A stretch of 61,861 nucleotides of DNA, filler included, from Globobulimina sp. (taxonomy: Eukaryota): assembly GCA_003354225.1 (NCBI GenBank). It is 27 parts of 27 records of this genome, joined end to end, with 100 filler letters (N's around TTAATTAATTAA, not from the genome) between each part and the next. Parts side by side here need not be neighbours in the genome. Positions count along the whole stretch, not along the records: positions 43,612 to 45,805 come from PIVH01008279.1; 26 more parts are not named here. One strand, 5' to 3'. This document shows, piece after piece, positions 2,197-47,906 of the stretch. The notes under the pieces were generated by a model. That model was not told the origin of the DNA and made no database searches. It saw nothing but the letters and a program-made list of their open reading frames with translations. Each line of letters starts with the position of its first letter. Position 1 is the first letter of the stretch. The position numbers were made by a program, and so were the translations under genes.

Positions 2197-2296
2197 NNNN
2201 NNNNNNNNNNNNNNNNNNNNNNNNNNNNNNNNNNNNNNNNTTAATTAATTAANNNNNNNNNNNNNNNNNNNNNNNNNNNNNNNNNNNNNNNNNNNN
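2197..2296. other. Artificial contig spacer (N44-TTAATTAATTAA-N44); first of 26 identical spacers, about every 2.3 kb
   Basis: Identical 100-bp block with stops in all six frames. Contigs: 1-2196, 2297-4492, 4593-6788, 6889-9084, 9185-11380, 11481-13676, 13777-15972, 16073-18268, 18369-20564, 20665-22859, 22960-25154, 25255-27449, 27550-29744, 29845-32039, 32140-34334, 34435-36629, 36730-38923, 39024-41217, 41318-43511, 43612-45805, 45906-48099, 48200-50393, 50494-52687, 52788-54981, 55082-57275, 57376-59568, 59669-61861. Confidence 0.99.
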
Positions 2297-3510
2297 GTCC
2301 CCTGGGTTTTCTCTTTAACAATATCATCCACAAAAAATGGCAATGACACACGTTCCTTATGATCAAACGTCAAGCATTCATTATAATGATTACTTCCAAA
2401 CAACCAATGTTTGCCACCCACACACTGGCAATATGAGTGACAAGCGCCACATTCAATTTTCGCTATCTCATATTCTACCAAATCATTTATCAATTTTGGT
2501 TCAAAAACATCCATATTATCACCATGTCCACATTGACCGTCGCTGTTCAATCCCCATGAATATATCCTCCCTTTCATATCCATGGCTAAACTATGATGAG
2601 TTCCACATTCAATCTCTCGAATCACTATCTTGCCAACCACAAAAAAATCAAGTCGTGTTACTCCAGAAACGCTTTTATTATAATTACCAACGCCTCGCTG
2701 CCCACAATCATTCCTCCCGAATGACCAAACTGTTCCAGCATCAGAAACAAACAATGAATGAGCAAAACCACAGCGAATTTTAGCAATGTTTTTGTCTCGA
2801 AATGTAACCATTTCATTCCAATGAATGCCGTCCATTCCATCAGCACAAGTATCAAATTCAAAGTTACTTTGTCCGGCACAATAAACTTTATTTATTTGCA
2901 AGAAATTAAACACCAATGTGATGACTTCAGTTGGTGTTGAAACTCCAGTTAATTTAAACCAATGTTGTATGATAATTGTTGCCATATTGCGAGGTAATCC
3001 TAACGCAATGGTATAATCTGCAGCAGGTTGAATGTCCGTAATTGGATGAGTAGTGAAAAACGGTTGCAATGTGAGCTGATTTATATGCGAATGCGAATGT
3101 GTTCTGCTTTGCGTATTAAAACCTAACTGATATTTATCATTCGATCCATTCACATATATGTGGTTATCGACTGTTATCCAAAACGTAGAACGCGATGCAA
3201 CGTTGACACAAACGGTATGTACATTTATCGTTGATGTGTTGATTGGGGAGAAAGGCACATAGGCATTGCGAAAGGCAATGTCGTTGTCGGCGCCGCAAGA
3301 ACCGTCCACGTTGTAACCTGCTGCGTAAAAATTATTATGAACGTCGCGAAAGATGCTATAATCTCGGCCAGTATATATATTTGTGATATCGGCGGGGAGT
3401 GTGGTTAACACTGATTGCATGTCACCAATGGAGATCCGTCCTAATTGGCCAAAGTAATTCTCACCAATGACATACATAATGTTGGTTGGGTATTTTGAAG
3501 ACATGATCAC
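2297..3510 (-). CDS. RCC1-repeat (beta-propeller) protein, 3'-partial, with an inserted helical module of about 35 aa
   Basis: Repeated VWSFGRNDCGQRG, IYSWGLNSDGQCG, IECGTHHSLA and IRCGFAHSLF motifs. Confidence 0.9.
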
Positions 3511-3524
3511 ATGATGCGAAAATG

Positions 3525-4463
3525 CTAAAAAACCTTGTACTGCAGCGAGTAATTGAAATAAATAAAGTCAGGTTTGTAATACTCAAAAACAAGTTGTCTG
3601 TTTTGCAATGAAATATCGTTTATTGTTAGTTTATTTTCTCCGTTTTCTCCAATACAATGATGCCTTTCATTGGATTCGATCAATGATATATTTAATCCAT
3701 ACTGTTTCATCAAAGCAGTCAACTCTTTGCTTAAGTTTTCAAAATGCAGCACATGATCACACAGCAGATCTCCATTCAAATCATACACGTAATCATATTG
3801 AGGCAAACCATGGCAATTTAAATGACATGAATGCGCTTTGAAATCAGCAATTAATTGTTTTATTTGTCGATTTAGACTATCCACTGAACAAAATTCAGAA
3901 ATAGGGACATCTTCCAATACATTGTCATGTAAGTAAATGTATTCAGATAATAACCTCGTAAATGGATTACGTACAATGCAGAATAATTTATATTGTGTTT
4001 TGTCATAATAATCAAACGTTTTTAGATAATAACGAGGTGGAATATTATACGGGACACATTTGTGTAAGCATTTGGGCGATCTTTTGTTGATCCAACGTTT
4101 AAAAATGTAACGTTTATTCTTTTTTGGCAATGCATATTTGCCATATCTGAGATTTTGAGAGAATGCAGCGAGCTCTATCGAAGAACCGGCTGTGTTTGGA
4201 ATATGAATAAAGTTCAATTTATAACGAGACTCCAAAACTAATGATTTATTTTCATTCAAAGAAGTACCGATGGTTTGTTTCCTAGCGATTACAATAATAA
4301 CTATAAACATGATGAATGGCAATACCATCAACAGTAACAATATATAGCGGGTGTATTTTCCTCTAGATCCGCGACGGCGTTGTAAACCCATGAGCAATAA
4401 TTTGTTCTTCAACAGCAACATTTTCCTTGTAATGGGGGCGCCCTGACGAAGTCCATTAGGCAT
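3525..4463 (-). CDS. Golgi-type (type II membrane) sulfotransferase, Sulfotransfer_2-like
   Basis: N-terminal TM helix, FIHIPNTAGSSIE (5'-PSB-like), FCIVRNPFTRLLSEY (3'-PB), LHFENL, YYKPDFIYFNY. Confidence 0.85.
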   Translation of the reverse strand: MPNGLRQGAPITRKMLLLKNKLLLMGLQRRRGSRGKYTRYILLLLMVLPFIMFIVIIVIARKQTIGTSLNENKSLVLESRYKLNFIHIPNTAGSSIELAAFSQNLRYGKYALPKKNKRYIFKRWINKRSPKCLHKCVPYNIPPRYYLKTFDYYDKTQYKLFCIVRNPFTRLLSEYIYLHDNVLEDVPISEFCSVDSLNRQIKQLIADFKAHSCHLNCHGLPQYDYVYDLNGDLLCDHVLHFENLSKELTALMKQYGLNISLIESNERHHCIGENGENKLTINDISLQNRQLVFEYYKPDFIYFNYSLQYKVF

Positions 4464-16329: not shown

Positions 16330-18158
16330 CCTATTTTCCTTCCTATAATATGGATGGAACAATCAATGCAATCAAATCGAAAGACAAAGCCAATAATTAT
16401 TTGAATTACATCCATCGTTTCGATGATGACGAAATGGAGGAAGAAAGAGAGGAAATTGAGAATGAACAGTTTAATAAAATAATACATGGATACAAAACGT
16501 CAAATAGATCCAAATTTGGTACGGCTAAGCACGTGGAAGAAACGACGAAGATGAATCAAATTATGCGACGAGATGAGACGCGGAAAGTAATCATGTCATT
16601 TAGCAGAAAGAAAGCGAGAGATATCTGTCATTTTGAAGGCAGGAAAGGATGACAAATATATGGATAGCTACCGCCCCGTCTCCCTGCTTTCAAGCTGCAG
16701 CAATCCGTTTGAGATAAATGGATGGCTGGGAGATACCTAACGTATGGAATCAAGATGAAAATCATTAGAATGAGACACTTTGGATTTATCAAAGGGATTG
16801 GTTGTGTAGACACCATCGCGTATTTGGTCGAATTTGTGTGGAATAATAGGATAATTAGACAAGAAACGCATGTCGTTTTAATCGATTTTAAAGCAGCATT
16901 CGACACATTGCAGCATAGAATGATTTTGGAATGTATGGAATTGGACATTGGCATTACTGGCTTTGCGCTGAGATACTCATATGTTGCATTAGAGTATCGG
17001 TGGGGGAGAGTGTATGTGTATGGATTTTATAGCGAATGGCGTCAGGACTTTTGTGGAGTGCCGCAGGGATGGCCGTCTTCGTCGGTAATCTTAGTGTCGA
17101 ATGGAACGGCGATGGGTGAGAATTTGAGAAAGAATATGCAATATGCGGTTGATTTGATTAGTTACATTTCGAGGAAGAAGAGGCTGTTTCTACAGCCCAA
17201 AAAGCAGAATTATATGGTGATAGATGATAAGCTGAATAAGAGCTGCCATAAGCAACTGTACTTCGATCTGACTATGGATGGCAAAGAAATAACAAAGAAG
17301 TACTCTCCGGTTAGATACCTGGGAGTGTGGATCGATTGGAATTTAAACTGGGACCACCAGTACGCCACAACAATCAGTAATGGTATCTATAACAGATATA
17401 AGAATGCGTCCGAATTGGTATCAAGGCAGTTGGCAAATATCTACAAAGCATTTGTGTATCCTAAGATGCTGTACGCGGCAGAGATATGGTATGCGGATAA
17501 ACACCCATTGACACCAAAGCTGCGTTCTGTGTTTAATGATATGATAAGACATTGCAATGGAACGCCTATTACATGGCAACATGTCCAGATCGGAGAAACG
17601 GATATGACAGAAATGATAAAACAGAGAAAATCGACGCTATGGTCACGTCTAATTAGATCCCCTCAGACAAACATATTGAGCAATATTATTAAAACAAAAT
17701 ATTGGTCGCTATGGAATGAGGAAAGAGTCAATGAAAGATGTGATCATTTTGATGAGAAGTATAACAAAAAAGAGAATCAGATACAGCGCAACAAACTAGA
17801 TATTACGGTGAAGAATGAGATTCGGAGACATGCGATGAGTGATGAATGGAAGTTTACGAATAAGAATGTGAAAGAAAAGAAGTTTGAGAGTAAGATGAAG
17901 ATTGTGAATGAATATAGGAAGAAATATAAAGGCAGATATCATATATTGTACGAGTTGTTCGATGAAGCGAGAAATCTGCGGAATGCGGACTACAAATTCA
18001 TGAAAAATATCGATTATGATACGGTGCCAAGCAATCTAACCTACCATTCGAGTGATGACAGTACACAGAAATTAAGGTTGAGGATTGGGAGGAGAGTCTG
18101 TATTATTATGATAAAGACCCCCAAAAAGTATACAAAGTCAAGAATAGAAATACAGTAG
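16330..18158 (+). mobile_element. Decayed non-LTR (LINE-like) retrotransposon reverse transcriptase
   Basis: YRPVSLLS in an alternative frame near 16668-16695, HFGF, DFKAAFD, GVPQG, RYLGVWID..LNW..Q, IYKAFVYPKMLYAAEIW. Frameshifts are present and the YADD segment is absent. Confidence 0.85.
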
Positions 18159-29844: not shown

Positions 29845-32039
29845 AGAGGAGGTATTTTGAAACCCACCGTTTTTCTTCCCCCTGGCCCAGAATGGGATGA
29901 ATGGATGAAGAAAAACCCTCCAGAACGTAAATTCGCCGTCGATGATCGAAGGTATGAAAGAGCTAAAGAAGAGTATGAAAGAACTCTACGTGGTGAAGCT
30001 AGCACTTGACCAGCTAGCTCAACAAGTGGCTCTAAACCCCGATGGAATGACAATCGATCATATGCAAGCAACAAAATGTTACAAATTGACTCCCCAGACC
30101 CCCCCGACTGGTACCAAAATGTAGTACAAGATGTATTAGAAGAAACTCATCAATTTGACCCTGAAACCTACAATGCTTTTTTAGGTCATCGAGCCAATGA
30201 CGATGACTCGGATTTTCACCCAGCGGCTGAACTTCAGGTGTTGGAAGCTCAGCGAACGCAAAAACCCTCATCTCTCAGCACCGTCGTCACCGCTAAACCA
30301 TTCCATAATATCTGTACCATTGGTGACGTTGTCAAAACCGACGCCATAGTAGGCGGCGAAACTATTAAAACAGTCTTAGATACCGGTTCTCAAGCTAATG
30401 TTGGTAATTCTACTTTAGTAAAAATTTTGGTTAAACATTATGCTGCCCTTGATAAAGCTCAACAACTCATTTGGGACGCTTCACTCGATATGATCGGTTG
30501 GGACGAAAATAGTACACGCAAAATGAAACACGCTGTTTTTCCCCAAATCACCATAAATGGTCACACCACTCGTATCTGTGTGTTCATTGACCCAAATGCC
30601 CGCCATACCTTATTGTTAGGTACCTCAGCGCTCCAAAACCTTCCTATTCAACTTGTCAATCAAATTACTGGCGAACCCTATCTCCCAAAAACAGTGAAAT
30701 TCAAAAAGTTGTCTTGTTCCCAATCAACCCAAACTGAACCATCAAAATCGCCCTCTATAAAACTATCCCATGTTACAAAAGATCTTCAACCATCAGTAAC
30801 TTTCACCCCAACCAATGTTTTTGCTCGCGATACTCTCTCTGACATAGATTATCTACGAGATGAGAATGGTCAAGTTAAGCCAGTACGATTGCCGTCTGGC
30901 CAAATTATCCATCCTGGTACCCTAGAAGGCGACTTTATGATACGAATGGCTCAAGCTAATTACATCCGAGAAAACAATTCGCCTCAAGACTCCAACAATC
31001 CCTCCAAAAGTACCCCAGTAGCCAAAGAGTGGGGTTTTGAAACCCATTCCAATAATAACTTTGACCCCACAGTAGATTTAGACATGACTACTGAACCCCC
31101 TAATGGACCCTTCGAAATCCATCTTTTACAAAAATTCAATTGTGAAGCAGAATCCTCTATTGTTTGCCCTGTTCAAACAGATGTCAAAAGTATACCACCC
31201 TTTTCTGATATCGAATTTGAACCGGACAATGACACCTTACTAAAATATGGAGTCGCAGCCCCCAATGCTATCATTCGCACCGATAAAGACGGTGTTGCTA
31301 ACATAGTTATCGATAATCCAAACCCCACTTTTAGAGCCCAAATGCCTAAAAACGCCAAATTAGGCAATGTCACCCCCTGCGAAGTGTCACCGAGTCCAGC
31401 AAAATTAATTACGGAGACACGAACATTGCCCCCAAACAAAATTCGTCGAAATAACATTCTAAAACGTCGATTGAAAACCAAATTTCGCGATTCCATACCC
31501 CTTATTTTAAATACTGAAATTGTCACCCAAATGGACGACCCTGAACGAAAAACTACTCTTAAATCTCTACTAGACCTATCCCATTTGCCTATTGACCGCC
31601 AAAAAGCCGTATATGACTGGCTTTTAGACCACCATGAAAACTTTTCCCTCTATAAAACCGATCTAGGCGACTGTGATTTAATCATGCATGAAATTGACAC
31701 TGGAGACACAAAACCTATTGCTTTACCCCTTCGTCGACTTCCTTTTGCAATGAGAGCGAGAGTTGAAGAGTCTATTAATAATTTGCTAGCAGCTGGCATT
31801 ATTCGTCCATCTCATAGTCCTTGGGCTTTTCCCATTGTTCCAGTGGTTAAAAAGGACAAAAGCCTAAGACTATGTGTCGATTTTCGCGAATTAAACAAAT
31901 TCACTAAATCTGACCAATTCCCTCTTCCCCGAATTGATGATCTAATTGATACGGTAGGTCGTGTCAAACCTATTATATTCTCAACCACTGATATGGCACA
32001 GGGGTTCCACCAACAACTCATGCATCCCAACAGCATAGA
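29845..32039 (+). mobile_element. Ty3/gypsy LTR retrotransposon internal fragment: gag end, in-frame TGA (30007-30009), aspartic protease, spacer, RT N-half
   Basis: VLDTGS protease motif; IRPSHSPWAFPIVPVVKKD..LRLCVDFRELN, FPLPRIDDL, DMAQGFHQ. Composition is C-rich and unlike the neighbouring contigs. Confidence 0.95.
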
Positions 32040-32941
32040 NNNNNNNNNNNNNNNNNNNNNNNNNNNNNNNNNNNNNNNNNNNNTTAATTAATTAANNNNN
32101 NNNNNNNNNNNNNNNNNNNNNNNNNNNNNNNNNNNNNNNTTGTTGGAGTCACACAAAATAATAATTTAATGGGATATTCAGTTTTTATCCAAGATTGGTC
32201 TGGTTATGGTCCCTTATGGAGCTGATTGTATTTGATTGTTGTAAATAAATGGAGCTGATTGAATAAAGCAATCATAATCTCAACACCGGCCACTGCAGCT
32301 TTTACCGTTTCGGGATTGTCCTTTTGTTTCCTCAAAAAAAGTACTATACAATTTCTGTGTTTCCTCACCACCGACCATCAGAGTCTCCATATCCGCCCAT
32401 AACACAACCTGACCACCACTATAATTATCATCCAAATTTTGAAAACTTCTCTCATATAAAAATCGCCATTCCAATATATTGACATTCCAAAATGAATCAT
32501 ATTTATAATTCTTTTCATAAATTTCATACGTTCCGTCATCAGAAGTTGCAGCCAAAAAATCTCCATTAAATGAACTAAAAGCAAAAACTCTAATAACATC
32601 TGTACATCCAAAATCACCCAAACTCCGCCTCGCCCCCATGAGCAACAACTACGATGGCCACTATAAGCGTTATAACCATGAGCATAAACTCCGTCATATA
32701 AACTGTTAGGATACAACAAATGTTTGCTAAATTGCATATGTTGCTGTCATTAATATTTGTTTGCCAGAAACGAGAAAGTTGTTATTTGCGGAACAACAGA
32801 GAAACAGGAAAAAGCAGTCAGAGCACCACAGAGCACTCAAAGCAGTCGAAACACCGAAAACACTTTCAAACAACGATATGTACATAAATAATTAAACATA
32901 TATATTTTAATACTTATGAATTAATAGTTAATATTTATGAA

Positions 32942-40520: not shown

Positions 40521-41217
40521 ATGGACAGTTTGAATCATTTATGCCTGGGTGATACAGTTAAATACACATCCAACATATTCTATTGATATCATTAAAAAAA
40601 ACAAACAAAAGGTTGAGCTCAAAAAAGACAAAAAAGGCTACCAAGCAAAAGCAGAGATAAAATTTATAGGCCCAATGCAGGATAAAAACGGTATATTTTA
40701 TGGTGTCGCAGTCGACAGAGCGTGGAAAGGAAAACATAACGGAACTTTTAAAAACATCCAATATTTTGAAACAAACCAACAACGCGGCTTATTTGCAAAA
40801 AAAGATCGTATGACAGCATTCATAGAAAAGGCCAAAAATAACAATAAATTTGAAGATAAACGCATATCCATAAATGATTCAGTGTCAATTGCTAAGTTAC
40901 AATGCAATGGAATTGTAAGATTTGTTGGATGCATTGCTCATAAACCCGGTACATTTTATGGCATTGCCTTAGAAGTATCCAACGGGAAACACAATGGCTG
41001 TGTTAAAGGCAGACAATATTTCCATTGCGATAACCACTGTGGCATATTCTTGAAAATCAAAGATATCGAACGCAATATGCATAATAATGGTGGATTACCT
41101 CCAATTGGTGGCATGAATGACAATAATATCTTGGCTAATTTGGTTATGGGTGGCCATGCTCCGCCACCTCCGCCAATCGCTGTTAATAACGCTCTGGAAC
41201 CAGTACCTGGTGGTCCT
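40521..41217 (+). CDS. Tandem CAP-Gly domain protein (3'-partial); intron 40557-40611
   Basis: MDSLNHLCLGDT|VEL; two copies of (I/V).F(I/V)G....G.FYG(V/I)A....GKHNG..K..QYF......G(L/I)F; Pro-rich tail. Confidence 0.9.
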
Positions 41218-41540: not shown

Positions 41541-43511
41541 TTACACTTTATTCAATAACAATAATGTATGATATGAGCCAGCTGAGGTAGCCACAATTTT
41601 GTCATTTTGATTGGATTGATAATATTCTTTTGGTTTCTTACAAAAAAGATGTTGTCCGTCATAATTATCCACATAAACATCATCCGCACATTGATTATAT
41701 CTGTTATTCCCCCAACAAAATATCTTATTTTCCTCGTTAAGCGCAATGGTATGATGACAGCCGCACGAAATATTTACGATTTGCGTATTATGAAATGCGT
41801 CAATAAAAGTCGGTATAAACCTATCCGATTTCTTATTATTCCCAATTTGTCCCTCATCGCCACGTCCCCATACAAACACATTCCCACTTTTATCAATTGC
41901 CGCGCCGTGATAATTACCTGACGATATCTGCGTTATTTTCTTATTTTGATTTTCAAACCACACCATTTTATTTATTATCACCTGATCCGATGACGATTCC
42001 GTATTATTTATCCCTAACTGTCCTCGATAATTACTCCCAAACGACCACACATTGCCGTTTATATCCAAACAATACGAATGGTCGCGACCTGCCGCAATTT
42101 GGATAATCTCACTTTCCAAATTGCTTATTTTCTTCGGCTGCTTTTGATATTCATTCGCTGTTTTATATCCTAATTGGAACGATTCGTTCAAACCGCACGA
42201 ATAAACCGCACCATCCACCGATAAAAACAATGTATGATACTCGCCGCACGCAATGGCTTTGATGTTGACATTGTTTTTCTGAAAATACTTATTCAACTGC
42301 GGCGTCGTATAATTTTCTTGGTCATCCAAGCCCAGCTGACCATATTCGTTTGCACCACAACAATATATCTCGTTATTGCCCGCACAAATAAACAGCACAT
42401 GGAACGCATTGATACTCCGCGATACCCCTTGTATTTTCAGATTGGAATTGGTGAAAAACGGATGTATCTTCGCCGCCAATTGGTCCTCTTCTGTGTTCAA
42501 ACCTAACTGTCCAAAATCATTGCATCCACTCACATATATGTCGCCATTGCAAGTTAAAAAGCAAAAGGCTTTGTATGAGCAGGATATCACACCGATAATA
42601 CCCACACCGCGACTCCATAGCAACTCTTGTAATTCACGGATATTTTCGTCAGTATTTACCCCCAAATCGCCCTTCTCGTTACATCCCGCGCCAATCAGTA
42701 CATTCTTGGCTGGGTCAATCAGCTCTTTCTTCTCTTCCTGAATCTGTCCTCCTCCTTCAATCTTATACTCCTCTTTCCTCTCTATGCCTATATACAAATA
42801 ATATGCGCCATTTCCATGCATAACATGTAGAAAAGCATACCATTTACTTTTATATTTTCATACATTCTCTTTAATTCAGTCAACTGCTCCAAAATACCGC
42901 CACCGGGACTGTTCAATATCGATCGCAATTCCTCCATTTCCTTCTGCATCGCACTGATTTTATCATTTATATTACGCATCTCATTCAAAATTAAATTTTG
43001 ATGCATTACGTTATATTCGTTATAATGTTTCACTATTTTTTGGTCTTCTTTCTTCTCTGCGCTTTGTGAGGATTCATTGCATCCGATATCAATGAATGGG
43101 CATTTGGTGGGTTTGAATTTGCATTCTTTTAAATGCGTAAATAACTCAGCCACTGCTCCTTCCCAATCACACTCATCGCCTTTGGTAACACCGCCGCCTT
43201 CGTCATATACACCATCCTCTGAGGCAGCCATTGCAGGGACGCTGTGACAGTGTGCAGTGTGTGGGGTATTTATTTGTTTAGTTTCGATTTTGCGAGTATA
43301 GCATACCCAGAATAAAGACAGGAAATATGCTCCTTTGCGATCATATTGTCCAACACGGCGTTCTTTAATGTCGGCTGTGTGATTTGTGTCTTATCCACTG
43401 GGCATAGCTCGTTTCGCTCACATAATGCAATGATGCATTTCCTACAAAATACGTGGCCCATGTTACAGGAGGCTGCTTTTAATGGTATATTGCGACATTG
43501 TTCACACATAA
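41541..43511 (-). CDS. RING + TRAF-type zinc finger + coiled coil + RCC1 beta-propeller protein (5'-partial); introns 43242-43306 and 42788-42840
   Basis: CEQC...C..GHVFCRKC...CPVD; CDWEG...HLKECKFKPTKCPF..IGC; about seven RCC1 repeats. Both GTATGC...AG introns restore one frame. Confidence 0.88.
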
Positions 43512-43939
43512 NNNNNNNNNNNNNNNNNNNNNNNNNNNNNNNNNNNNNNNNNNNNTTAATTAATTAANNNNNNNNNNNNNNNNNNNNNNNNNNNNNNNNN
43601 NNNNNNNNNNNTGTCATATGACAGTATATTATTTCTATTTGTCCATATTGTGTTTGCAAATCAATGGTATTTACAGCACAATTGGTACAAAGACAGACGC
43701 TCTACTTTAAGGTTTGCCGTACGTATTTCTGGTTTCTTGCCATATTAATAATATATAGAAATAATGACATTATCCGAAAATCAAACAGCCAATCAAACAA
43801 CGGGAAAATAATTGATTCGGTACTATTTAATTTATGGACACTGCCATAATGTACGTAAAACAAACAGATACAAATAGAGGGAAAAGGCAACACAAAAATT
43901 AAAACAGTATAAAAAATAAGACAAAACAATCAACATAAA

Positions 43940-45164
43940 CTACAAATTATTATCCTTTATTTTTTTTTTTACATTGGTAACAAATTTATTCCAGTGAGTT
44001 TTCAAAATAATATTATAAACTTCTTGTGTGACCCCTTGGAAAATATCACTCTCCATTCTGAAAAATTGGTTTTCAGCAAATATATGCTCGAAATGATGCA
44101 TCGTTGCCAACATATTTTGTCTTGTGACATCGGAAATATTTAAACTTAAATTTGATTTTTCATCGATACTAACTTCAATTATATTTCTTGCGGTCATAAA
44201 TCTTCTTTTATCTGTGGTTTGGTTGTCAAATTTCTTAATTGCTGTTAAATATATTGCTATCTCATCACGACATTCTGTTAATTGTTTATAATTTGTAGTG
44301 CGGTGTAAGCGGCAGAGTTAGAGTGAGATGACATACGTTGTTGTAAATATTTGAATAAATATTCTGTTGCAACCGATGATAATAAACAAATATCTAAACT
44401 CTTTAAAAAACAATAAACATAATCACAACCAATTGTTTTCACCATCATCATTTCCATTGCCCTCGCAAACGTATAATCCATTGCATATTTTTGCTGTGTA
44501 TACCAAACATATATACATAAAATAATATGCGTACAATGTACAAATCTGTATAATATATTGTTATATTACAATATAGCAAACCTGTATTTTATATGAATTG
44601 GGGAAATAATAAGTAAATGTTTCATGCAATGATTCCACCAAAACAGAAAAATGTGTGCTATCAATATGCATTCTGCCATGTATTGCACCTAAAATCGATA
44701 ACATTTCTGTTAAATTATCATCATTTCGTAATAATGCACGGATTAACCACCCGGTCGTATTTACAAATTTTAAAGCAATTGTTTCTATTTTCGCGGTGCC
44801 AGTGGGATGGAAATATTTTTTGAATATTCTTTTTATTTTATTGAGTTTCACTGCCATCGCTGAATAAATGGCAACACTAATTTCCTGTACATAGAGTCAT
44901 AGACTTATCTTTGCAAAAAAGGGGAATGTTTTTGTATGGACTGATAACTAATTGGCGTTGGATTGATAATGTGCTCATTTCATCATTCCAAAAACCAGCA
45001 GCAATTTGAACAATTTTGGTAGATATCATTGTTTTGGGTGATTGGCAGGTTTTTGATGGAACATATTCGTTAACAAATGTGTCATATTTAGTTGATGTAT
45101 AATTTGGGAATGCTGGTTCACTTAAAGCTTGACTTCTGTCAATTGATTTGATTTGGTTTCCCAT
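43940..45164 (-). CDS. Globin-RGS fusion protein (336 aa) with an MGN N-terminus; exons 45164-44949, 44884-44582, 44493-44337, 44274-43940
   Basis: Three GT-AG introns (64, 88, 62 bp) give an uninterrupted 1,011-nt CDS. Globin: AGFW, AIYSAMA...RIF, ALKF, LSILGAIHGRMHIDSTHF. RGS: SLDICL...EYLFKYL...DEIAIYLTAIKKF...ARNI...SLNISDVTR...IFQGVTQEVYNII...WNKF. Confidence 0.85.
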
Positions 45165-45304
45165 GTTTGAAATGTATTATATATAATATTAGTGGTAAAC
45201 AAAAAAAGTTGTCTTTTTTGATCGATCCTCTTATTCGTCTTTCAATTTTTGGGTTAAAGTTTTTAAAATCTCAGAGAAAAAACACTTTACTTATTAGTAA
45301 GATC

Positions 45305-45805
45305 ATGAGCAATATTACTCATGTATGGACACAAGCAGTAATATTTATATGTTTAATAACAATGATTGTCATTTTAATCAGTTTGCTTTATAAGTTCAAC
45401 CAAGCAAATTCTGCATCATGTCCCAAAGGATCCACTCAGATAAAATCACATAGGAAGACGCCATCGATATCGCTTACTTCAAAGTCGAGTTCATCAATAT
45501 CTGCAATACCAGCAAAACGAAAACCAATTTTAAAATTTTATCAAATTACCACAATCACATCAATATCGACATTTATAATTTCAGTTGCATTTGATTGTGG
45601 AAATGGTGTTTATTATTTTGAATCAGGAATTGATGTGTTTCATACTGAAGAATATTGGTTGATATTGTTAGCAAATATATTTTTTGTGATTTCCAGTGTT
45701 GCGTTGTATGTATTCATGTTTGGCAGAGTCTATATTATATTCAATAAATCCAATGCCGGCCCTGCAAAATATAAGATGAGGTATGATATTTTTACTTTTT
45801 TGTTA
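45305..45805 (+). CDS. Divergent 7TM receptor-like protein, N-terminal part (3'-partial)
   Basis: Three TM helices, a long basic first loop and LYVFMFGRVYIIFNKS after the third helix; same pattern as 49778-50393. Confidence 0.6.
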
Positions 45806-45929
45806 NNNNNNNNNNNNNNNNNNNNNNNNNNNNNNNNNNNNNNNNNNNNTTAATTAATTAANNNNNNNNNNNNNNNNNNNNNNNNNNNNNNNNNNNNNNN
45901 NNNNNCCATATAAATTTCTTAAATTACAG

Positions 45930-47906
45930 AGTATTCGAACAGTGGTTTTACTGTTTATGACATTTGTGTTTGAGATATTTTATTATTGGATATTTTGCTT
46001 TGTATTATGGGTGAATGCAATCGCATATTCGATAGAATCGTCGATTCATTTTTATGTTTGGAGCTGTTACTTACCGATAATGTTTCACATATCGTTATTA
46101 TTCTCACTCTGCGCATATTATAATAAGCATTTCCATCGAGATAGTTTTTTAAAACTTTTTGTGTGTTATGGCGAAAAGAAAAGAAAGATTCCGAAAATAT
46201 TAAAACAATTTAATTTTGGATTATTGTTATTTTTTTTGATCACAATGGTTTGTGTTATTGCAGCGCATTCAAATGGATCATTGGCGGCAAGTATTGTTTT
46301 TATTGCAATGTTTGGCTTATTTGGGTTATTAATGGGCGTGGCACAGTTTATTGTATGTTTGATGGATTTGAAAAATATGCATATTTATCAACAGATGGAA
46401 GAGAGAGTATTGATTATATTTGTATCGATATCAGCCATGTTGTTTATTATCATATTTGCAGTCAATGTATGTCCATAATTTATATATATATATATCCTCG
46501 CAAACTAATTAAATATACGTAACATATGTCAGTTAACAATAGCTTTTGAATGGAATGCGGCAGAAAGCACACAAAATATTGAAGGTATCCGAATCACGCA
46601 ATTAGTGTTTGAGTTATTAATGTTAATGGCAATGCTGTGTATGATATTTTATATTTATTACGATTATATCATGGGAAACGAGTATGAGGATGAAGAGAGT
46701 CAGCAAAGTCAACAAAGCGTTGAGCGGACAAATACATTGACTGACGAACAGAAACACGATTTACATGACTTACCTCCGCCATATCCATATATGCAACATG
46801 TACAGATTGGGAATGATTCCATGGAACATAATCAAATACAACAAATACAACAAAGACAGAGAAGCGCCTCCACTGTGTTTAATGATCCAAGTGATGATGA
46901 AATGGAACAAGCGGCGGTCCGCATAACTCACAGATCGGTAGCCAGCAAATCCAAAACCACAGAAATGGCATCGTTTACAGACAAACTAATGGGAGATAAA
47001 AATTACAAATATAAGCCAGGCGATGCAGTGGATGTAGCTCCGATGCATACAAATGAATGGATGGGTGGCATTGTATTGGATGTTATGCAAAATAATGAGA
47101 TAAAAATACGTATTTTAGATGGACCCTCCATACAAAAGGAAATATTTCTTAATTTAGCAACCGATGCGGATAAAATTAGACTGACTATGGCAAGAAAGCC
47201 AGCTCGGCCATCCATTGAAGTGGCATTAGCAAAACAGGGGAAATTAAGAAAAGCAAAAGGCAGAAAGTTGCCAGAATTACCATTGTTTGGTGCACCGTTA
47301 TTTCAGCAGAAGTTAGTGAACGAGGTACCATTTGCTTTGGTATTGTTGAAAGAATATTTATTTAAATTTAATGGAGATAGACATTTGGGAATATTTGTGA
47401 ATGGGGACATAAATAATATTAATAAAGCACCACAGTTTATGGATGGCATTGTATCGAAAGTGGATGTCAACGGCGTGAAGAAATTAATTGAAAATAATAA
47501 AATATCGCAGCATGAATTTAAAATCGATAAACGTGGTGACGGCGATGAGAGGCATTATGCGATGATATTTAGTGAGTTGATTAAGTTATGGATGAGTTCA
47601 TTGCCACGGCCCTTATTACAAAATATGACAGGTACTTTTTTTGCTCATATCAGCAATATGCGATTGTTGCAGATTGAATGTGAAAAAATCGATGAGCCAA
47701 ATTGGTCGACGTTGGTGTTTATTTGGGACATTTGTGGTGAAATTGCGTTACATTCGCAAATCAATAAAATGACAGTCAAAAGATTGTCTCAAGTGTTTGC
47801 GCCATATCTATTTACAGATAACAATAAAGACAGAGATGCGCAATTAAGACCATATGTCGTTAATTTTTGTCAAATTGGAATAAATTGGAGGATGCAAGCA
47901 TCTTAA
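45930..47906 (+). CDS. Multi-pass (at least 6 TM, GPR137/TOM1-like) membrane protein fused to a Tudor-like barrel and a RhoGAP-like domain (5'-partial); intron 46467-46532
   Basis: A 66-bp phase-0 GTATGT...GTCAG intron joins ORF 45942-46478 to 46605-47906. RhoGAP-like: LFGAPL...VPFAL...GIF, LIKLWMSSLPRPLL, NKMTVKRLSQVFAPYL. Confidence 0.8.

Follow-up and report, generated by a model that had tools for sequence, protein, structure and literature searches.

Here we describe a gene that encodes a globin fused to a regulator of G-protein signalling (RGS) domain in the foraminifer Globobulimina sp., found on the minus strand at positions 43940 to 45164 of a 61,861-nucleotide stretch of DNA (hereafter the window) drawn from GenBank assembly GCA_003354225.1. 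The architecture of its product is solid: a protein of 336 amino acids (aa) composed of a leader, a flavohaemoglobin-like 3/3 globin, a short linker and an RGS domain resembling those of the R4 class. The gene is real, spliced and expressed. It belongs, as a divergent member, to a family with multiple paralogues in which every named protein comes from a foraminifer. From these properties we infer, at roughly even odds (a probability of about 0.5), that the protein is a heme-globin sensor of ligand or redox state that gates the action of its RGS domain on G-alpha at the membrane. The idea of a gas sensor wired to G proteins is accordingly put forward as a hypothesis, and as far as we have searched the literature a globin-RGS fusion has not been described.

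When the four exons are joined by their coordinates along the minus strand (45164..43940), they give a coding sequence of 1011 nucleotides (nt) that translates into 336 aa with a single terminal stop, while the unspliced frame meets a stop at codon 96. All three introns have GT-AG ends, and none of their lengths (64, 88 and 62 nt) is a multiple of three. Contigs of four public sequencing runs (X1 to X4) were aligned to window positions 43640-45780, and the joints found in them are given with the parts of the gene:

45165..45257, minus strand: 5′ untranslated region (UTR) of at least 93 nt, reached by record 17 of X3, with no ATG within
44949..45164, minus strand: exon 1, aa 1-72, with the Met-Gly start (ATG at 45164), the low-complexity leader and the globin A helix (Trp59)
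44885..44948, minus strand: intron 1, 64 nt, GT..AG, phase 0; joint in X3 and X4 contigs
44582..44884, minus strand: exon 2, aa 73-173, globin helices B to G (Pfam Globin)
44494..44581, minus strand: intron 2, 88 nt, GT..AG, phase 0; joint in X1, X3 and X4 contigs
44337..44493, minus strand: exon 3, 157 nt, aa 174-225 plus one base, with the H helix, the short linker and the first RGS helices; the family alignment is continuous here
44275..44336, minus strand: intron 3, 62 nt, GTATGT..AG, phase 1; joint in X1, X3 and X4 contigs
43940..44274, minus strand: exon 4, aa 226-336 plus the TAG stop, with the rest of the RGS domain (Pfam RGS)
43742..43939, minus strand: 3′ UTR of at least 198 nt; record 17 of X3 extends to 43742

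The Met-Gly ATG is the first start codon, because the 93-nt leader sequence before it holds no ATG. The surroundings are AT-rich, with a guanine-cytosine content of 0.22-0.42 per 500-nt interval, and the runs of N that are regularly spaced in the window do not fall within the gene. A ciliate-type reassignment of stop codons was considered and rejected: the reading frame ends at TAG, there are stops within the introns, and no reassigned codon is required by the model that the contigs support.

Joints that omit exactly 62 and 88 nt are present in contigs of three of the four runs (X1, X3, X4), and a joint that omits the 64-nt intron 1 is present in contigs of two (X3, X4); this 64-nt cut also fits one base further on, which gives 44885-44948 as in the gene model. 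The omitted pieces have CT..AC ends on the plus strand, and hence GT..AG on the strand of the gene. A single X3 contig (record 17, 1332 nt, with two differing letters) extends from 45257 down to 43742 and takes in all three joints and all four exons. One molecule thus carries both UTRs as well as both domains, and the locus yields a single transcript and is not a pair of genes. The unspliced sequence is present in X2 (records 12-14), a run on the sample that also gave X4. The library kinds of X2 to X4 are not on record and no run is recorded as RNA; given this, the simplest reading, which is an inferred one, is that X2 is genomic DNA and the other runs are cDNA. The original prediction, made from the sequence alone, was of four short open reading frames (ORFs) spliced through three GT-AG introns into one intact 336-aa protein, and coordinates, translation and contig joints all bear it out. 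Exactly the three predicted intron intervals are missing from the contigs of the public runs (not on record as RNA), and the 1332-nt contig with both domains agrees with the single gene and single transcript that had been proposed.

Other contigs touch the locus as well. Some are short and deep (depth up to 522, against 33); they overlap only 44975-45025 and end near 44601-44632, and the overlap corresponds to conserved A-helix and G-helix (‘YYFP’) stretches, with divergence beyond, which suggests that they are paralogous family transcripts of the same organism. In X1, a run from another study, there is a spliced variant about 95% identical to window positions 44010-44794, with 17+5+5 differences in a 543-nt contig, and this could be an allele, a strain difference or a recent paralogue. 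The listed differences to variant contigs number 21, of which 11 are synonymous and 10 change a residue. The X1 variant contigs were rejected as a measure of selection, since the 11 to 10 split is weak and pools several contigs.

A full HMMER scan of 1.84 billion representative sequences with exon 4 returned 40 proteins at E<=0.001, seven of them at E<=1e-10, and many of the 40 are 330-420 aa long with the match at their C-terminal end. A word-based search with exon 2 among longer proteins gave none at E<=0.001. The spliced window protein matches 40 of the 41 collected proteins, and in 21 cases a single alignment spans every exon junction (residues 72/73, 173/174 and 225/226), which provides an independent check of the gene model. 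The closest relative, P0001, is 43% identical over 283 residues (E 1.8e-80), and the window copy is no more than 43% identical to any relative; it probably stems, therefore, from another lineage of foraminifera than theirs. Thirty of the 40 relatives were aligned and scanned against Pfam, the ten omitted being the 3043-aa P0015 and nine fragments below 135 aa; of those scanned, ten are again fragments, of less than 300 aa. RGS is found in 29 of the 30 at E<=0.01 (best 1.1e-11), and both domains are seen by Pfam in P0001 and P0045. No protoglobin-type family is among the six Pfam families matched in the 30 relatives.

Thirty clusters were looked up by organism: 20 are tied to a named foraminifer, ten carry no species name and none is tied to another organism. 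The five named foraminifera are Elphidium margaritaceum, Nonionella stella, Bolivina argentea, Globobulimina turgida and Ammonia sp., all of them benthic, which fits the earlier guess of a protist that lives in sediment. Several species have many paralogues, with at least eight different clusters under Nonionella stella names. The family sequences are public with automatic Pfam labels and stand unnamed in transcriptome protein sets, with one labelled ‘hemoglobin-like flavoprotein’. In P0011 (974 aa), a relative from Bolivina argentea, about 600 further residues without a Pfam match follow the RGS domain at the C-terminus, and these could be a real extra region or a chimera of transcript assembly.

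In the window protein itself, exon 2 matches Pfam Globin (PF00042) at E 2.5e-7, with 31.6 bits against a cut-off of 22 over profile positions 2-96 of 117, and exon 4 matches Pfam RGS (PF00615) at E 3.2e-5, with 24.7 bits against a cut-off of 23.9 over profile positions 30-110 of 117; exons 1 and 3 gave no meaningful Pfam match. A phmmer search of exon 2 against the PDB found weak haemoglobin matches only (E 0.25-0.98), and these alignments served for the placement of residues, not as evidence of family. A profile built from 23 family members is more telling, with 24 PDB matches at E<=0.01, of which five are globins and 19 are RGS domains. The best globin is 3s1i, Hell's Gate globin I (1e-8, profile positions 117-241), and the single-domain flavohaemoglobin-like 3ubc was matched too; the five globins are flavohaemoglobin-like or extracellular, and none is of the sensor or protoglobin lineage. 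The best RGS is 2af0, RGS2 (6.2e-8, profile positions 261-347; 4.2e-6 in a further comparison of the family profile), and the closest solved RGS sequences are RGS2, RGS16, RGS1 and RGS18, of the R4 class.

The evidence on fold comes from P0001, the 43%-identical relative, and not from the window protein. An AlphaFold2 model of P0001, built with the family alignment, has a mean predicted local distance difference test score (pLDDT) of 77, with about 88 or more over most of both domains, and a predicted template modelling score (pTM) of 0.60. The model places globin helices at residues 71-209 and RGS helices at 221-356, with the N-terminal 66 residues disordered and only a short linker between the domains, where one helix ends at 209 and the next begins at 221. 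In a Foldseek search of the PDB, this model superposed on 3s1i_A with a template modelling (TM) score of 0.86 and a root-mean-square deviation (rmsd) of 2.0 over 139 columns, on RGS4 (1agr_H) with a TM score of 0.85 and an rmsd of 1.7, on RGS8 (2ode_D) with a TM score of 0.84, and on neuroglobin chains with a TM score of about 0.72. A search of the ESM Atlas with P0001 residues 67-356 gave no usable match. In the 336-aa protein the globin spans about aa 48-192 and the RGS domain about aa 203-330, behind a low-complexity leader of about 45 residues, which agrees with the spans proposed beforehand (globin at about aa 50-190, RGS at about aa 200-330). The proposed pairing of a 3/3 globin half with an RGS half is likewise upheld by Pfam on the window exons, by the family profile and by the fold matches of P0001, whose model returns both folds.

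For individual residues, the window protein was aligned with 27 full-length relatives, among which a few are near-duplicates, so that the counts are not fully independent. Helix positions were set by alignment to haemoglobin chains and to 3s1i. The globin positions of interest, all on the minus strand, are as follows:

A12, Trp59, exon 1, minus strand: Trp in 25 of 27 relatives
B10, Tyr79, codon TAT at 44864..44866, minus strand: Phe in 15, Tyr in 10 and Leu in 2 of 27; placed by the 3s1i alignment
E7, Ile108, codon ATT at 44777..44779, minus strand: variable, with Leu in 7, Thr in 4, Ile in 3 and Gln in only 2 of 27
E10, Lys111, exon 2, minus strand: Lys in 16 and Arg in 5 of 27
E11, Phe112, exon 2, minus strand: Phe in 15 and Tyr in 7 of 27
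F8, proximal His141, codon CAT at 44678..44680, minus strand: His in all 27; aligned with haemoglobin F8 His
G5, Phe151, exon 2, minus strand: Phe in 21 and Tyr in 4 of 27
G13, His159, exon 2, minus strand: His in 26 of 27

These alignments confirm the A12 Trp, B10 Tyr, F8 His (44680-44678) and G-helix His-Phe (residues 150-151) that had been named from the sequence alone. The earlier placement of Ile at E7, where a His or Gln might be looked for, also stands in the alignments to haemoglobin and to Hell's Gate globin I. These residues predict an aromatic, non-polar pocket in which the proximal His is conserved and neither His nor Gln is fixed on the distal side.

On the RGS side, the residue most clearly kept is Asn271 (codon AAT, 44138..44140, minus strand), which aligns with the Asn of ‘INID’ or ‘VNLD’ in RGS2, RGS1 and RGS18 and is Asn in 26 of 27 relatives; we take it to be the equivalent of RGS4 Asn128, and the Asn of an ‘LNI’ motif had been predicted to be retained here. 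Further kept RGS residues are a Ser (26 of 27 relatives), an Arg (26 of 27) and a Trp (27 of 27). A family motif, Cys-Asp-Glu followed by a hydrophobic residue, lines up with RGS2 ‘CEEN’ and with the ‘SEEN’ found in RGS1 and RGS18, and its Cys aligns with that of RGS2 ‘FCEEN’. RGS2 has the same Cys and Asn as the family at two deviant sites, the Asn being at the position that would correspond to RGS4 Asp163. RGS2 is an active GTPase-activating protein (GAP) directed at Gq.

The N-terminus provides a possible link to the membrane. A Met-Gly start is present in 23 of 49 collected proteins, and 18 of those 23 fit a myristoylation pattern, G-{EDRKHPFYW}-x(2)-[STAGCN]-{P}, in the style of PROSITE. 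The window protein has no transmembrane segment. In P0019 (661 aa, Nonionella stella) and in the 5′-truncated P0017 (509 aa, Bolivina argentea), a hydrophobic multi-pass N-terminus and a Cys cluster replace the Met-Gly leader. An AlphaFold model of P0019, with pLDDT mostly 35-70, shows about seven long N-terminal helices before the globin-RGS part, and a search for relatives of this membrane part found none beyond P0019 itself and an isoform. As a lead only, the modelled P0019 and its counterpart P0017 could represent a form of receptor with a seven-transmembrane (7TM) domain, a globin and an RGS domain in one chain.

In the mechanism that we propose, the globin would bind heme b through His141, and its distal pocket is predicted to be lined by non-polar and aromatic side chains (B10 Tyr, E7 Ile, E11 Phe), E10 being a conserved basic position. 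Its heme would sense O2, nitric oxide (NO), carbon monoxide (CO) or the state of the heme iron, and the signal would travel through the H helix and the linker to the RGS domain, which would then alter its binding to G-alpha and possibly the rate of GTP hydrolysis. Most relatives would be kept at the membrane, next to G-alpha, by a putative N-terminal myristoyl anchor, and a few by the multi-pass domain instead. The conservation of residues across relatives suggests that both halves are under selection.

Several observations weigh against this reading. In the globin, there is no fixed distal residue to stabilise a ligand, because E7 is not conserved; the window protein has His145 where all 27 relatives have Gly, four residues after F8; and only six of the 30 scanned relatives, ten of which are fragments, match Pfam Globin at E<=0.01 on their own sequence. 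The RGS half of the window protein lies a mere 0.8 bit over the Pfam cut-off, and a phmmer search of the PDB with exon 4 found no RGS at E<=1 and three weak matches to surfactin synthetase (E 0.08-0.39). With the RGS score of the window protein marginal and the single-exon PDB matches weak or absent, it is mainly the family that makes the case for the two domains. The Asn of ‘SEEN’, presumably the equivalent of RGS4 Asn88, is Ile231 in the window protein and Leu, Ile, Met, Val or Phe in all 27 relatives; the substitution of this Asn had been predicted. A C-terminal ‘Asn-His-Trp’ motif is Thr-His-Trp in the window protein, its first residue being Thr318 where 23 of 27 relatives have Asn. From motif position, in a helix beyond the reach of the alignments, we tentatively take Thr318 to be the equivalent of RGS4 Asp163, and at the position so set neither the window protein nor any relative has Asp. 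Since the Asn88-like position and, as it seems, the Asp163-like one are changed, the canonical contacts with G-alpha are only partly kept. In the alpha3-alpha4 region, a position that is Cys in 26 of 27 relatives is Arg228 in the window protein, which carries a Cys at the residue just before. At its N-terminus the sequence MGNQIKS has Gly2 but fails the myristoylation pattern at position 6 (Lys), which is the imperfection that the original prediction had already allowed for in calling it a possible signal. Finally, the Rhizarian expansions of G-alpha are reported, in the parts of the two sources consulted, for Bigelowiella and not for foraminifera (PMC3971589, PMC5784254).

A broader version of the sensor reading can be formulated, and it is tentative, a possibility to which we give clearly less credence. 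It would have the family as a lineage-wide foraminiferal set of membrane-held heme sensors, in many paralogues, that directly gate RGS domains, with some members acting as self-contained receptor-GAPs; together they would form a core sensor for taxis or metabolic switching as the cell moves across oxic, anoxic and nitrate-respiring layers.

Among the rival explanations, two survive best, and we regard each of them as unlikely. The first is that the globin works as an enzyme or a protectant and not as a sensor (for instance in NO dioxygenation, nitrite reduction or the scavenging of reactive oxygen species) and that the RGS domain only targets it to G-alpha or to sites of membrane signalling. 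The best solved globin relatives, 3s1i and 3ubc, are indeed single-domain and flavohaemoglobin-like, and the flavohaemoglobin-like lineage is linked to NO and O2 chemistry. One member of the family is named ‘hemoglobin-like flavoprotein’ in one source, and the abstracts of papers on them place the named relatives among foraminifera of oxygen-poor, nitrate-respiring settings. Membrane-anchored globin X, moreover, is discussed as a protectant in part of a review of globins (PMC7475203). However, no reductase domain is fused to the globin, the RGS half is conserved as much as the globin half, which is more than an address tag needs, and the short linker (209 to 221 in the P0001 model) suits coupling between the domains.

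The second, which we hold to be improbable to a similar degree, is that the RGS half is an RGS-homology scaffold, as in axin, sorting nexins or G-protein-coupled receptor kinases (GRKs), which does not act on G-alpha and has some other partner. The hydrophobic residue at the Asn88-like position in the window protein and all 27 relatives, and the Asp163-like position that is never Asp, are what such a scaffold might show, and some RGS domains are described as having become scaffolds after loss of GAP activity (PMC3971589, in part). Yet the closest solved sequences, RGS2, RGS16, RGS1 and RGS18, are true R4 GAPs, 26 of 27 relatives retain the Asn128-like Asn, and at the two deviant sites RGS2, itself an active GAP, has the very same Cys and Asn as the family.

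It is considerably less probable that the globin fold is free of heme and serves as a helical module for regulation or dimerisation, for which the non-heme globin domains of RsbR-type proteins are the model. The small share of relatives with a Pfam Globin match (six of 30) and the unconserved E7 would suit this explanation, but the proximal His is present in the window protein and all 27 relatives, G5 is aromatic in 25 of 27 and B10 and E11 are mostly so, and the P0001 model fits the structure of an oxygen-bound globin with an rmsd of 2.0 over 139 columns. Least probable of all, and largely excluded by the contigs, is an artefact in the form of a wrong gene model, two adjoining genes or a dying pseudogene copy: at two sites that are fixed or almost fixed in the family the window copy does carry another residue, none of the runs with spliced contigs is recorded as RNA and 10 of the 21 differences to variant contigs change a residue, but the ORF is intact, one contig carries four exons with exact GT-AG excisions while the unspliced form occurs in a run of X4's sample, 21 relatives from other species align over all junctions, and the 11 synonymous differences of 21 compare with roughly one quarter expected without constraint (our own estimate).

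The sensor reading can also be set beside systems that are already known. Sensors built on a heme-globin are known to act through outputs of the chemotaxis, cyclase, kinase and anti-sigma kinds, and globin-coupled sensors include bacterial and archaeal HemAT, diguanylate-cyclase and kinase types as well as the globin-adenylate cyclase of Leishmania. Globin-coupled sensors resemble the foraminiferal proteins in having an N-terminal heme-globin-type domain followed by a C-terminal signalling output in one chain; they differ in that the foraminiferal output is an RGS domain and the organism a eukaryote. The outputs listed for them in part of a 2020 review of globin diversity are methyl-accepting chemotaxis protein (MCP), kinase, diguanylate cyclase and adenylate cyclase, with no RGS (PMC7475203). 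Because the foraminiferal globin is of the Pfam Globin, flavohaemoglobin-like kind and not protoglobin-like, it falls outside the sensor lineage. The R4 RGS proteins, and RGS2 in particular, are alike in being the best profile match, in fold (TM score 0.84-0.85 for RGS4 and RGS8), in the Asn of ‘INID’ and in the family Cys, whereas the foraminiferal proteins add an N-terminal globin and have lost the Asn of ‘SEEN’, and the window protein has Arg at the family Cys. RGS4, RGS5 and RGS16 are controlled by O2 and NO through oxidation of an N-terminal Cys in the N-degron pathway. There a gas sets RGS activity and with it G-protein signalling, as it would in the sensor reading, but by degradation and with no heme domain, where the foraminiferal proteins have a heme-type domain built in.

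Ferric human neuroglobin binds G-alpha-i and serves as an inhibitor of guanine nucleotide dissociation (GDI), according to part of one source (PMC4842972). The likeness to the proposed sensor is that the heme state (ferric) controls the binding of neuroglobin to G-alpha, along with the fold match of about 0.72; neuroglobin differs in being a single-domain GDI that acts through its own surface, while the foraminiferal protein has a fused RGS domain and a best globin match of bacterial type. For the N-termini, GLB-33 of C. elegans, which is a 7TM domain plus a globin, and globin X are the relevant comparisons. Globin X is acylated (myristoylated and palmitoylated) and membrane-bound in the account given in part of the 2020 review (PMC7475203). 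The Met-Gly pattern in 18 of 23 relatives and the multi-pass N-termini of two relatives recall these two proteins, but both are without an RGS domain, and the window start fails the myristoylation pattern. In the 7TM-RGS proteins of plants and many protists, as described in part of a 2014 survey of RGS architectures, a multi-pass domain at the N-terminus keeps the RGS domain on the membrane (PMC3971589). P0019, with about seven N-terminal helices predicted in a low-confidence model, would be similar, whereas the window gene is without a transmembrane segment.

The original prediction knew of no RGS output for a globin sensor, and the literature searched is likewise without a description of a globin-RGS fusion, although supplementary tables and two older surveys, which lie outside the search, could list one. 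RGS and ‘G protein’ are absent from the main text of the 2020 review (PMC7475203), and ‘globin’ is absent from the main text of the 2014 survey, whose architecture tables lie in its supplements (PMC3971589). Among the matches listed, no paper is on foraminiferal globins by its title or abstract, and ‘hemoglobin’ is absent from the foraminiferal omics papers listed.

The two introns within the globin, both in phase 0 (44885-44948 and 44494-44581), lie near B3/B4 and at the start of helix H in our own helix numbering. Animal and plant globin introns are at positions B12.2 and G7.0, and those of the foraminiferal gene are elsewhere. Atypical intron positions are also reported in Guillardia globins (PMC4101818, in part).

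The other ORFs of the window include ordinary eukaryotic genes, and a tblastn search with two relatives found no second globin-RGS copy in it:

41541-42857, minus strand: RCC1-like protein (Pfam 4.9e-84)
40534-41217, plus strand: CAP-Gly protein (Pfam 1.8e-34)
2245-3567, minus strand: RCC1-repeat protein, judged by eye only
45152-47906, plus strand: run of hydrophobic ORFs that ends in a RhoGAP domain (RhoGAP E 5.8e-10), head to head with the globin-RGS gene
16713-18158 and 30010-32091, plus strand: long ORFs like those of a reverse transcriptase or retroelement polyprotein, by eye only

The apparent starts of the RhoGAP ORF run and of the globin-RGS gene are only about 130 nt apart, and the two regulators of GTPases may have a promoter region in common.

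To our knowledge, oxygen is known to tune heterotrimeric G-protein signalling only indirectly. If the sensor reading is true, a conserved globin-RGS fusion would be a direct and genetically compact link from the state of a gas or of redox to the deactivation of G-alpha, and it would offer a testable system in one soluble protein of about 290 residues. It also has a use in annotation, where the members of the family stand unnamed in public transcriptome protein sets. For the organisms themselves, the fusion is a candidate for how foraminifera of oxygen-depleted sediments sense their chemical position.

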